From Euglena gracilis (taxonomy: Eukaryota), in contig CP154954.1 of the NCBI GenBank assembly GCA_039621445.1, positions 25,618,954 to 25,682,953 of the forward strand: 64,000 bases of DNA, in the 5' to 3' direction. The notes beneath the pieces are model-generated. The model was not told where the DNA came from. It did not search any database and saw nothing but the letters and a program-made list of their open reading frames with translations. Positions 57,500-63,778 of this stretch are shown here, one piece after another (position 1 is the stretch's first letter; each line of letters starts with the position of its first letter). Both the position numbers and the translations under genes were made by a program.

Positions 57500-60400
57500 T
57501 TAGCCGCACTCCTCGCCGTCCTCAGGCTTGTCGGACCACGCCCCGACCGCGACCGACCGGTTCCCCTTCTCATTCTGCTCAGCTCCCCGCCACTGCCCCC
57601 GACAGAAGGGGTGAGGATTATTGGGGGTGGGTGGAGAAGCCTTGGCACTGACCCCCCCATTTGGACCCCCCCATATCAGCGCCGCAGCACTGATGGCATG
57701 GAAGGAGAAAAGTAAAAATGGGAGCGATAAAGCAAGTTGTGTACAAAAAAAACACTGAAAAAATTGGCTGGGGGCAAATGCGCACCTGCACAGACAAGGG
57801 CGGCGGCAGAAGGGGGGGGGGCTGGGCCTCGCCAGATGGTTGTTTGTCCCAAGCAAACAATATTTTGGTCGCACAAAGTGTTGAACTAAAAAAAAGGAGG
57901 AATGTCAAAAAAAATTACCAGGGGTCGGAAGTTGTGATATGCATTCCCCCCTGCCCGTCTCGGCTTGCCAGTGTTTCTCCCATGAAGCGATGCCAATGAA
58001 GTCGGCAAAAAACAACAATGGCAATAAACCGCCAAAAAAAAAACAACGGAAAATGCATTCCCGGCTGCCCAAGACCTGCCCCATCGAGGCTGGGCAGTGG
58101 CGGGGGTGGAGATCTTCTGGAGCAGGCCTGTCGCCTGGTCCAGGGTCTCCCGCAGCATCTGCTTTGCGCCGCCCACCTTGTTGTCTTGGTGGGCGGAGCA
58201 GATGTTGTCGAAGTCCCGGGCGGCCCTCGGCCTGTTGTGGCAGCCCCGTGGGGCCGCATGAGCACCCACACGCAATGGCCGCCCAGAAGGAGGCGGCGGA
58301 CACACAGATGGGTGGCTCGCGGGTGCACAGACTTCGACAGGCGTGTTATCACAGATTTGCCAATAACTGCCCTTTCGGAATCCAGTGTCGAGGATTGTTC
58401 ACTTTTCTTTTTGCAGACCCTCCCCTCCATGGAAACAGCCTCCTGCCTCTGTACTTGCTTGAACTGTCCACATTGTTTTCGACCTCTGCACTCGTAGGCT
58501 TGGCAAAGAGGTTTTTCCCAGGAGGGGGGAAGGTGCATGGTCTGCTGGTATTGGGGGCCAGGATTCGTGTTAAGGAAGGTTGCACCTTGCTGGGTGCTAT
58601 GGGCAGGCAGGGGGTAAGGCACTTTCGACTCAAAAAAAAATTCGTGCACGGCACCTTCGGCCTACAGATCCTCAGTGTACCTACCGAAAGGCCCACTCGA
58701 AGTAGCGTTACCTGTGAGGCATGGTTCTCGGAAGTCGAATCCCTTAGAACTAATGCTCAGAATCGTATTAGCAGCATCCATTCCCGTAAGCGAAAGCAAT
58801 ATTTGCTAGAATTCAAATCACAAATACGATACAATGTCAAGATATAACGTGGCGAATACAAATCAATGTCAAGATATAACGTGGCAAAAATGGCCATTTG
58901 TCCTTATTTCCATTTTCGGCACTCTTTGCCGAAAATTTCTTCGGCCCAGCCTGGCTTCGCCAGGCTGCGAAAACTTTAGTACCGATCGATCCCCCAGGGG
59001 GGGTCCACAGCCTGGATATGGGAGCCAATGGCTGGAAAGAAGGTGCTTACTGGTTGATCCCCTTAAGAAATTGCCTGGGCCAGAGGGCCAGGCCGAGGCC
59101 CAGGCCCAGTCCGCCATCAGCTGCTCCACCCACGCCTTAAACTGCATCGGCGCCTCCTTCGTTGGGAACAGACCGCGGCCATCGTGTCCCCCTAGTGTGA
59201 CCCATGGCTGCTTCCGTGCTGAAGGACCTTCTGCAGGACTTTACGTGAAAATTGTGTTTTTTTTTGCGCTTATTTGTGTTTTTCTATTTGTGTTTTTTGT
59301 GTGGCGGTTTTCGAGGGTCCATGTCACGCCCCCCCCCCCCCCGTGCTGTGCCCGGGCTGGCAGTGGCGAGGCAGCCGCCCACCTGCTTCACCCCACCCCG
59401 CTGTACCCCCACAGTATCACCGGAGAGCACTGCTGGAGGAGGAAAATCATCACAATTTCCGGGAAAATTTTTCATTGTGCATCTAAATTAGGATCTCTGT
59501 TTGATGAGATTTTGGGGGAGATCAAAATGATTATGGAAATAAAAAAAGTGGACCAAAACATCCAAAATGGCTCAACAAAAATAGGTCCCAGGGAAAATTG
59601 GAGCCAAAATGGCTCCCAGGTGGGATGGAGCATTATCTTGGTTGTTTAAAGATTCATAAATTTATATTTGGTTGGTTGGTGCACACAACTAAATAAAGAA
59701 ACTGTTCTTCATTAATTGCTCCCTTGACCTTTCCTTTATGTGGAAGAGGGAAGCTGGAAAAGGACACGAGTTGCTCCTCACCAGCCGCTCAGGGGTTTTT
59801 TTTTAAGACCGGGGGGGGTCGGCACCCACCCACCCACCCCCTGGGGTGGGCGAGGGGGGGGGGGTCCCGGGGGACCCACCCAGTTTTGCCCGAAAATGGC
59901 CAAAAAGTGCCAAAAATAGCACCTTTTCCAAAAAATTTCGGCGCCAAAGGCGCCGAAAAAGATACCCCCACCAGCCCCAACCCCACCCCCGGGGGGGGGG
60001 GGGGGGGCCAAGGGACCCATCCACCCTACCCCCCGGGGGAGGGGGTCTAAGACTAAAAAAAACCCCTGCAGCCGCTAGATGGCCAGGAGATGGTGTGCTG
60101 CTGTTGAGGTTGAAACGAAAACTTCTCACTTTTGCGGGCCCAAATCACTTGACTTGAGTGGGGCAATGGGCAGGCGATGGGCAGGTCCCTTGATACTGGG
60201 ATGGAAGGCCATGTTCCCCTTCTTGAAGAGGAGCAGTCGAAGCAACCAGCCGGGCCAGGAGACGTGTCCAAGCCAGGGTACCTGAGGACAGCAGAAATGC
60301 GAAGGCCCTGCCGAGAAACCCTGTCTGGTGGAAACTTTATGGAACTTTTCAGAGTCAAAGAGGCTGGAGATGTGCTGTTTGGAAATAAATTGACGAATGA

Positions 60401-63400: not shown

Positions 63401-63778
63401 AATGCTTTGGGTTGATGGGCGATGATCTTCAAACGCTGGTGATTTTTTTTCAGGGTTTGGGCCATTTTTGCTGAGAAATCTCCGACTTATCACAAATTAT
63501 TCGGGCGAAATTTCGAGGAACTGCGCGAAGGGCTTGAATTTTTGTTGCTGTTGGGGGAGAGGGCTGTTACTTGATTTTGTAGAAAAAGACTGGGGAGGTA
63601 TTTAGGAGGGATTCCAAATGAACGGACATTTCCCAGGTCCTGGGCACATCCAGCGTGGGCACCCACTGCCTGTGCAAAGAGAGAGGCGGGCAACGCAGCA
63701 ACTCCAGAGCCTCCGCCGGCGGAAGGCGAGGGTGTGGAAGGGGTGGGTGGCGATCACCGCCTCGATCTTCCGGCCGTT
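57500..63778 (-). CDS. Metallo-beta-lactamase-fold hydrolase-like protein, 8 visible exons; 5' end lies beyond the window
   Basis: Exons about 63778-63721, 63160-63052, 61519-61444, 61037-60954, 60251-60183, 59174-59106, 58215-58108, 57580-57500 splice in frame to NGRKIEAVIATHPFHTLAFRPFFASYPNAKYYGTPRHLR...NHFSNVFVFHRESRTIHNDD...MAFHPSIKGPGLFPT...WDFDNICSAH...EECG*. Motifs THxxH, FHxxSRT..DD and WDFD.I..AH fit an MBL-fold (DUF4336-like) family. Confidence 0.88.
59790..60068. mobile_element. hAT-type MITE, family C, nested in MBL-gene intron 59175-60182
   Basis: Perfect TSD cagccgct at 59782-59789 and 60069-60076. Confidence 0.93.
60409..60712. mobile_element. hAT-type MITE, family G (TIR CA(T/G)GCTTGTGCTTA), intronic
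   Basis: catgcttgtgctta / taagcacaagcctg; decayed TSD; highly similar to 55790-56077. Confidence 0.8.
62675..62969. repeat. Compound (GCAC)n/(GACA)n/(GA)n microsatellite, intronic
   Basis: Seen directly. Confidence 0.97.

Follow-up and report, generated by a model that had tools for sequence, protein, structure and literature searches.

CAGG-ended transposons with 8-bp target site duplications as a candidate source of nonconventional introns in Euglena gracilis

Introduction

Where the nonconventional (NC) introns of euglenids come from and how they are removed are questions that have been open for thirty years. We take them up for a stretch of 64,000 nt of the Euglena gracilis genome (assembly GCA_039621445.1, contig CP154954.1, positions 25,618,954 to 25,682,953 of the forward strand), which we call the window and number from its first nucleotide. 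At its end lies a DUF4336 gene that is interrupted by seven NC introns. An earlier, sequence-only reading of this DNA held that the ends of such introns pair so as to leave 3 nt before a terminal helix and 5 nt after it, that young transposons in the window duplicate 8 bp of their target, and that these numbers agree for a reason: the introns would be fossil insertions of hAT elements, and splicing would erase such insertions from RNA. Do the introns and transposons of the window bear this out? From the evidence below, we consider it rather probable that a class of MITE (miniature inverted-repeat transposable element) with CAG...CTG ends and an 8-bp target site duplication (TSD) is a present-day source of NC introns.

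The 3 + 5 rule itself is already published. In euglenid NC introns, CAG was placed at +4 to +6 and CTG at −8 to −6 (Milanowski 2014), and knock-in experiments indicated that the 3-nt donor spacer is strict and that the 5-nt acceptor spacer tolerates one additional nucleotide (Nomura et al. PNAS 2025; PMC12501133). The code given there, 5'-N3CDG-/-CH'GN5-6/R, is present in full in just 61.2% of NC introns (PMC12501133), and therefore the absence of CAG/CTG does not exclude an intron from the NC class. NC introns are reportedly excised as circles, probably without the spliceosome (PMC11282704).

The register of the DUF4336 gene introns

The DUF4336 gene occupies positions 57274 to 64000 on the minus strand and continues past the end of the window; its last exon is 57274-57580. 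RNA joints, the spliced translation and a transcript-derived protein (EG_transcript_20317) that carries PF14234 together define it. The match to this Pfam family reaches 29.2 bits, with a cut-off of 28.5, and DUF4336 is presumably a member of the metallo-beta-lactamase clan.

Exons in the window are too short for gene finding based on open reading frames (ORFs). RNA from three sets of contigs and a single raw run was mapped to positions 42990-62670. There, 15 joints were well supported and 56 more weakly, and a loose end at 61519 fixes one more intron. Protein-guided splicing supplied the ribosomal S17 gene and a further gene, termed gene D, and completed the DUF4336 gene with its seventh intron. 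Three E. gracilis transcriptome proteins from EukProt (EG_transcript_22412, 20317 and 23588) are encoded in the window, with exons that are 96-100% identical, which identifies the sequence as nuclear DNA of E. gracilis. In total, 28 introns have transcript or protein support, 22 of them NC and six with GT-AG ends.

For the DUF4336 gene, RNA contigs and raw RNA reads give the joints 57580>58108, 58214>59105, 59173>60182, 60249>60952 and 61037>61444. The loose end at 61519 resumes at 63052, which places the sixth intron at 61520-63051, and the seventh, 63161-63720, is fixed by the transcript protein, which reads AFRPFF over the joint. Positions 57581 and 63720, between which the sequence-only reading had set its claim, are exact intron borders. 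None of the seven introns, which we number C1 to C7 in order of position, has GT-AG or GC-AG ends, and no allowed placement yields GT-AG.

In six of the seven introns, base +4 pairs with base −6 in an allowed placement, so that the asymmetric 3 + 5 register proposed from the sequence is borne out by borders fixed independently through RNA and protein. Below, the similarity of the two junctions is given as the number of matches between the 8-mer formed by the last 5 exon and first 3 intron nucleotides and that formed by the last 5 intron and first 3 exon nucleotides. C1 (57581-58107) has a single possible placement, a 13-bp helix that starts from +4/−6, no CAG, and junction 8-mers that match at 1/8. 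C2 (58216-59105 in canonical placement) can be slid by 3 nt, has its helix in register and matches at 5/8. C3 (59175-60182) has a CATCG/CGATG helix, matches at 3/8 and carries a nested MITE. C4 (60252-60953) can be slid by 5 nt and matches at 5/8, and its in-register helix includes G-U pairs. C6 (61520-63051) is not slidable, has its helix in register and matches at 1/8, and C7 (63161-63720), which is slidable by 3 nt, has the in-register helix GGCGGAGGC/GCCTCGGCC and matches at 3/8. The exception is C5 (61038-61443), which reads CCC/CAGCCG...CGGCTG/CCCC and has spacers of 3 + 4; this is also the only one of the seven with CAG/CTG.

The same register, with the helix beginning at +4/−6, is found in 18 of the 22 supported NC introns of the window, as compared with none of five GT-AG introns checked. 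Two of the others have spacers of 3 + 4, one has 3 + 6, and one has a displaced helix of 14 bp. In all 18 canonically placed NC introns the downstream exon begins with a purine, and in 16 of the 18 the first intron base is a purine as well. Scanning for the longest uninterrupted helix is a poor guide to the spacers, as their apparent sum is altered by outer pairs that form by chance and by segments further inside the helix. Two introns of other genes that the sequence-only reading had cited as examples were placed exactly, 53025-53680 by RNA and 25446-28135 by protein.

At 62675-62969, intron C6 contains long arrays of (CACG)n and of (ACAG)n, with 58 copies of ACAG. In the neighbouring segment 63054-63155, the genome encodes FFASYP and EG_transcript_20317 has FFTSYP, which points to an allele or strain difference between the assembly and the transcriptome.

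Transposons that duplicate exactly 8 bp

To find MITEs, we collected inverted-repeat pairs that lie at most 3.5 kb apart and in which at least 12 of 14 end positions are complementary. Among the 160 such pairs that begin with CA, flanking 8-mers agree at 7 or more of 8 positions in 12 cases, and in 2 when the comparison is displaced by 12 nt as a control; pairs with any other start dinucleotide give 15 of 2889 taken together. Among the 12, the pair 42810-43138 proved to be a microsatellite artefact and was removed. In the 11 elements that remain, the TSD is perfect (8/8) in nine and 7/8 in two, and its edge is sharp: identity per position is 10-11 of 11 over eight positions and 0-3 of 11 over the next eight. 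The end sequence is CAGG in ten elements and CATA in one, and many have in common TTAAGG after a stretch rich in T. Because they fall into multi-copy families, which include additional copies, complete or partial, that are 79-91% identical, the 11 elements are mobile repeats. The claim that young CA-initial MITEs with 8-bp TSDs reside here is thus well founded.

Five of the elements are nested in known introns and one lies in coding sequence; by a six-frame codon score, 10 of the 11 are outside coding-like context. The nested elements include 29507-29802 (TSD ctcccaag, 8/8) in gene D intron 29444-30262, and, in gene D intron 25446-28135, a larger element of 2218 bp at 25574-27791 (ends CATACATC..., TSD acatgaag, 8/8), which has no Pfam match in its ORFs. 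Two others, each with a TSD of 7/8, are nested in GT-AG introns of the S17 gene: 35077-35483, and 40410-40883 in the first such intron. The MITE in C3, at 59790-60068, is 279 bp long, has the ends CAGGGG...CCCCTG and the TSD cagccgct (8/8), and belongs to the family of 21667-21918 (TSD gacagggg, 8/8) and 29507-29802. The others are 1833-2288 (TSD gccaagac, 8/8; family of 40410-40883), 10983-11251 (ttcggagg, 8/8), and the related pair 6497-6872 (accccaag, 8/8) and 15966-16372 (ggtccgac, 8/8), a family with a partial copy at about 55465-55789. That copy sits upstream of a gene described below as gene B. The element in coding sequence is treated in the next section.

To which superfamily do these elements belong? 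T at the second or A at the seventh position occurs in 9 of the 11 TSDs (P = 0.009), a bias that would fit the target consensus of Ac-type hAT elements. In one orientation, AAG closes five of the 11 duplications, next to the CAGG end; this ending and the T2/A7 bias possibly reflect a target preference. The consensus nnnTAnnn of Buster elements (PMC3517528) is not seen in the 11 TSDs. In hAT elements and hAT MITEs the TSD measures 8 bp and the ends are short and of the CAG(G/A)G type (PMC3517528, PMC3942097), with terminal inverted repeats (TIRs) of 5-27 bp, and Mar of Drosophila, which ends in CAG(G/A)GGTAGGC and duplicates 8 bp, is typical of them (PMC3517528). Judged by these features of sequence, our best guess is that the elements belong to hAT.

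Another superfamily with 8-bp duplications, such as Merlin or P, is a somewhat unlikely but serious alternative. Two Merlin families with 8-bp TSDs have been described in E. gracilis itself (PMC8101967), whereas none of the papers found reports hAT in Euglena. Nor did Pfam detect a transposase family of any kind in 234 of the window's 268 ORFs of at least 100 aa, among which the sole family match was an S17 exon. Merlin elements, however, duplicate 8-9 bp and begin with a conserved GG (PMC8101967). The elements here agree with Merlin in TSD length and differ at the end, since none of the 11 has a terminal GG; this, together with the CAGG ends and a target bias that would fit the Ac type, is what leads us to keep hAT as the best guess.

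A transposon bounds an NC intron of the S17 gene

The ribosomal S17 gene (EG_transcript_22412; 34776-41937, minus strand) has five GT-AG introns (38274-41860, 37736-38193, 37367-37598, 36926-37230 and 34942-36307) and a sole NC intron at 36445-36908, established by the transcript-derived protein. This NC intron consists of a MITE, 36450-36905, and one copy of its TSD. In transcript sense it reads AAG/CAGGCATTTGCTTAAGG...CCTTAAGCAAAAGCCTG/ACCGG/A, with the duplication ACCGGAAG on both sides at 8/8. The protein reads VYRYRKSKKR without interruption over the site, and the exons are 100% identical to it. The intron satisfies each term of the published splicing code, the ends of its MITE match those of other MITE families at 14/20 and 17/20, and the RNA of the whole intron folds with the predicted terminal helix (z = −13.9). 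Under a null model in which junctions are re-paired, a match of 8/8 has a chance of about 4e-4.

Between this intron and the GT-AG intron 36926-37230 lies a micro-exon of 17 nt (36909-36925), so that the MITE insertion point is 17 nt downstream of a pre-existing S17 acceptor site.

The arithmetic is simple. With one cut 3 nt ahead of the MITE and the other 5 nt beyond it, the element is lost together with 8 nt, and therefore exactly what insertion with an 8-bp TSD had added. The outcome is identical in either orientation, because both ends of the MITE read CAG...CTG. We thus favor the following account. The DUF4336 gene is an ordinary E. gracilis gene whose seven NC introns are removed by the known helix-guided rule, with cuts made 3 nt before the terminal helix and 5 (occasionally 4 or 6) nt after it, ahead of a purine. 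The same window hosts active-looking short DNA transposons with CAGG.../...CCTG ends that duplicate exactly 8 bp; they end in the motif at the heart of the splicing code, and their TSD length equals 3 + 5. An element of this kind that enters an exon would be a legal NC intron at once, its removal taking the element and one TSD copy and restoring the mRNA, and the S17 gene would be one such case. The acceptor spacers of 4 and 6 nt (three of the 22 introns) would fit later drift inside the intron.

In this form, the proposal that splicing is a precise RNA-level excision of insertions in either orientation stands as far as the arithmetic and the anatomy of the MITEs are concerned; that the elements are hAT, that the MITE-bearing S17 allele is itself spliced and that insertions are spliced on arrival are steps that we infer. 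An independent published parallel is the gapC gene of E. agilis, where a strain-specific new NC intron has direct repeats of 8 nt, which are longer than those of the other introns studied (PMC4770533).

Do older introns retain traces of duplications?

If many NC introns began as such MITE insertions, as we would infer for the older ones, their junctions might still resemble each other. The junction 8-mers were compared in the introns with a 3 + 5 placement. The four NC introns that lack such a placement were dropped, and the S17 intron was set aside because it had prompted the idea, which reduces the 18 introns to 17. In these, 60 of 136 positions match, as compared with 50.5 ± 4.5 after re-pairing (7,522 derangements, P = 0.027). 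Among 25 offsets compared, the true register scores highest, with 60 matches versus 28-49 elsewhere, and 6 of the 17 introns match at 5/8 or better versus about 2.3 expected (P = 0.018).

The gradient of junction similarity described in the sequence-only reading is correct for 36445-36908 (8/8) and for 60252-60953 and 53025-53680 (5/8), but the trend rises above chance only weakly. The older introns exceed their own re-paired controls and do not exceed conventional introns: the six GT-AG introns match at 20 of 48 positions (42%), equal to the older NC introns (44%).

Several further results weigh against the view that the older introns are decayed insertions. The upstream flank is also elevated (48/136 matches versus 38 expected), leaving no sharp 8-nt edge, and in a sliding window the peak of matches is broad and one base off, unlike the edge of the MITEs. 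The number of matches shows no correlation with the quality of the helix (rho −0.24, P = 0.35), which ruled out the use of TSD decay as a clock. About half of the raw excess is due to a pyrimidine/purine preference shared by both cut sites; a TSD would yield this preference too, yet the splicing machinery may simply demand it. When the first 20 helix bases of the 34 ends of the 17 older introns were compared with the 22 MITE ends, just two beat 95% of random window 20-mers that share their first three bases. A MITE copy bounds one of the 22 NC introns, the S17 intron, and none of the other 21, and the clustering of intron termini with MITE TIRs that the sequence-only reading had expected is thus negative in the window save for this case.

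The introns themselves add to these points. CAG/CTG is present in 10 of the 22 NC introns, and in one of the seven of the DUF4336 gene, with one more intron in the window that has CGG/CCG; many of the helices are long and perfect and bear no relation to MITE ends; and in 4 of 22 the spacer sum is not 8. Moreover, a TSD accounts for the sum of 8 and not for its division into 3 and 5. The S17 transcript, for its part, could stem from an allele that lacks the insertion, since allelic or strain differences do exist, as the A versus T in the DUF4336 protein illustrates. Hence the idea of fossil hAT anatomy survives in part: MITE anatomy fits the splicing code and one MITE interrupts the S17 coding sequence, but the 3/5 split, the hAT identity and the older introns as fossils do not follow from it. 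The window does not carry the claim that old introns, all seven of the DUF4336 gene included, are fossil MITEs.

Alternative explanations and significance

The excision system might instead be old and of other origin, with its 3 + 5 register already in place, and only transposons with CAG...CTG ends and 8-bp TSDs might be able to enter exons harmlessly. That class would then be tolerated in genes or have adapted to look like introns, and it would be the transposon that fits the introns, whose hallmarks would not be its fossils. This history seems unlikely to us, although much is compatible with it. In most of the older introns CAG/CTG is missing and the ends are unlike those of any MITE; the division into 3 and 5 and the demand for a purine belong to the machinery (PMC12501133); diplonemid NC introns also have paired ends, which suggests an old system (PMC12621601); and with 10 of 11 MITEs outside coding sequence, the class is independent of exons. 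To arrive at both the matching end trinucleotide and the matching TSD length, however, would need selection on the transposon, and the length of a TSD, which the transposase determines, is not easily adapted. A machinery tuned to a resident transposon fits equally well, and the fit may run in either direction, with a machinery adjusted to the transposon or with a transposon class that the machinery happens to forgive.

That the agreement is an accident, with junction repeats produced by a pyrimidine/purine preference and by microhomology or break repair, and with the S17 MITE a recent, allele-specific and unspliced insertion, is distinctly improbable: although GT-AG introns have an equal 8-mer identity (20/48), direct repeats flank 84.4% of all E. 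agilis introns, conventional ones included (PMC12501133), the authors of the gapC study attributed its repeats to break repair (PMC4770533), and the S17 intron lies outside the RNA-mapped stretch 42990-62670, its 8/8 repeat (chance about 4e-4, as given above) is a transposon TSD that is equally sharp at 8 bp in 10 other copies and hence not repair microhomology, and its element meets every term of a code under which foreign NC introns were spliced out of a non-native exon (PMC12501133).

The source of new introns proposed here thus remains the reading that we favor. A bolder version of it, which we advance only tentatively, is that euglenid NC splicing as a whole is tuned to one resident transposon class, that every exon insertion of a CAG-ended, hAT-like MITE is erased from the mRNA at once, in either orientation, and that old introns are drifted copies. 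If true, this would account for the share of about 70-80% that NC introns make up in Euglena and for the continued appearance of new ones within species, and selection would keep just the helix and the spacing in old introns.

Although the MITE idea was published in 2014, it had no element to its name; the window supplies named, CAGG-ended families with exact 8-bp duplications. The relation 3 + 5 = 8 offers a simple quantitative reason why their insertions would be harmless in exons, and the S17 gene provides one candidate caught in the act, among conventional introns. What was a loose resemblance becomes testable on the E. gracilis and E. agilis assemblies. If the proposal is true, Euglena would be a case in which a DNA transposon matches the RNA processing of its host base for base; should it fail, the GT-AG, re-pairing and end-comparison controls show how little old introns alone can say.

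Other genes and repeats in the window

Gene D (EG_transcript_23588; 24669-30474, plus strand) has five NC introns: 24753-25316, 25446-28135, 28178-29266, 29444-30262 and 30368-30429. The last of these is just 62 nt long and has a perfect 8-bp helix, CAGCCTGA/TCAGGCTG, with spacers of 3 + 5. Intron 28178-29266 has spacers of 3 + 4, and these are identical to those of C5: in both of the 3 + 4 introns (61038-61443 and 28178-29266) the spacers are entirely C, in the arrangement CCC/CAG...CTG/CCCC. The shorter acceptor spacer could reflect the loss of one base in a C run or a homopolymer slip in the assembly.

Gene B (48300-55237, minus strand) has an ORF of 215 aa. Six of its NC introns have canonical placement (48425-48598, 48644-49682, 49749-50090, 50147-50601, 50694-51740 and 53025-53680); the remaining introns are 51838-52992, with spacers of 3 + 6, and 53795-55113, which is GT-AG. 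Its protein matches no Pfam family; by eye, it begins with a hydrophobic leader and also has a stretch rich in cysteine and a single hydrophobic span. A further spliced transcript, 44304-46041, has two joints and no clear ORF. Its intron of 106 nt, 45691-45796, has a 14-bp helix that begins at +10/−7, off the usual register.

Very high RNA contig depth was observed over the partial MITE copy at 55465-55789 (mean word depth 3379) and over 51531-52187 (1985); RNA from repeats that have many copies in the genome is abundant. Simple arrays include (TG)n at 23531-23787, (CATA)n at 42806-42982 and (CATC)n at 48785-49150. No Rfam family was found in the window.

Comparison with known systems

As far as our searches reach, the MITEs, their exact 8-bp TSDs and the S17 intron constitute a real and previously unreported link. 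In the main texts searched, no connection between euglenid NC introns and either an 8-bp TSD or hAT was found; the terms hAT and TSD are absent from the available texts of PMC12501133 and PMC11170887, and hAT from that of PMC11282704. The introns themselves do not differ from published euglenid NC introns. They share the lack of GT-AG, the terminal helix that joins the ends, CAG/CTG where present, spacers of 3 and 5-6 nt, the purine and slidable junctions; what the accessible parts of those papers lack is an 8-bp TSD, hAT or an actual MITE family.

The closest precedent is the hypothesis that NC introns originated from MITEs. It was put forward when no transposable elements were known in euglenids (Milanowski 2014), and a later review in Mobile DNA (2024; PMC11282704) called the inverted intron ends TIRs and the junction repeats TSD-like. 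The idea is the same, but those papers, in the portions available, give no TSD length, superfamily or element, whereas the window provides 11 elements with an 8-bp TSD, one of them placed as an intron.

Compared with hAT MITEs such as Mar, the elements described here are alike in the 8-bp TSD, the CAGG ends, a length of a few hundred bp and a non-coding, multi-copy nature, but neither a hAT transposase nor an autonomous partner turned up among the scanned ORFs of the window. The Merlin elements of E. gracilis share the 8-bp TSD and differ in starting with GG instead of CA (PMC8101967).

Finally, the introners of Micromonas and Aureococcus (Huff et al. 2016, as cited in PMC11170887 and PMC11282704) provide a parallel from conventional splicing. 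There, an insertion is an instant intron, and the TSD makes its removal exact. Introners, however, rely on the spliceosome and on one splice site located in the TSD or in the element, whereas the removal of NC introns in Euglena is guided by a helix, and the sum of the two spacers alone must equal the length of the TSD.

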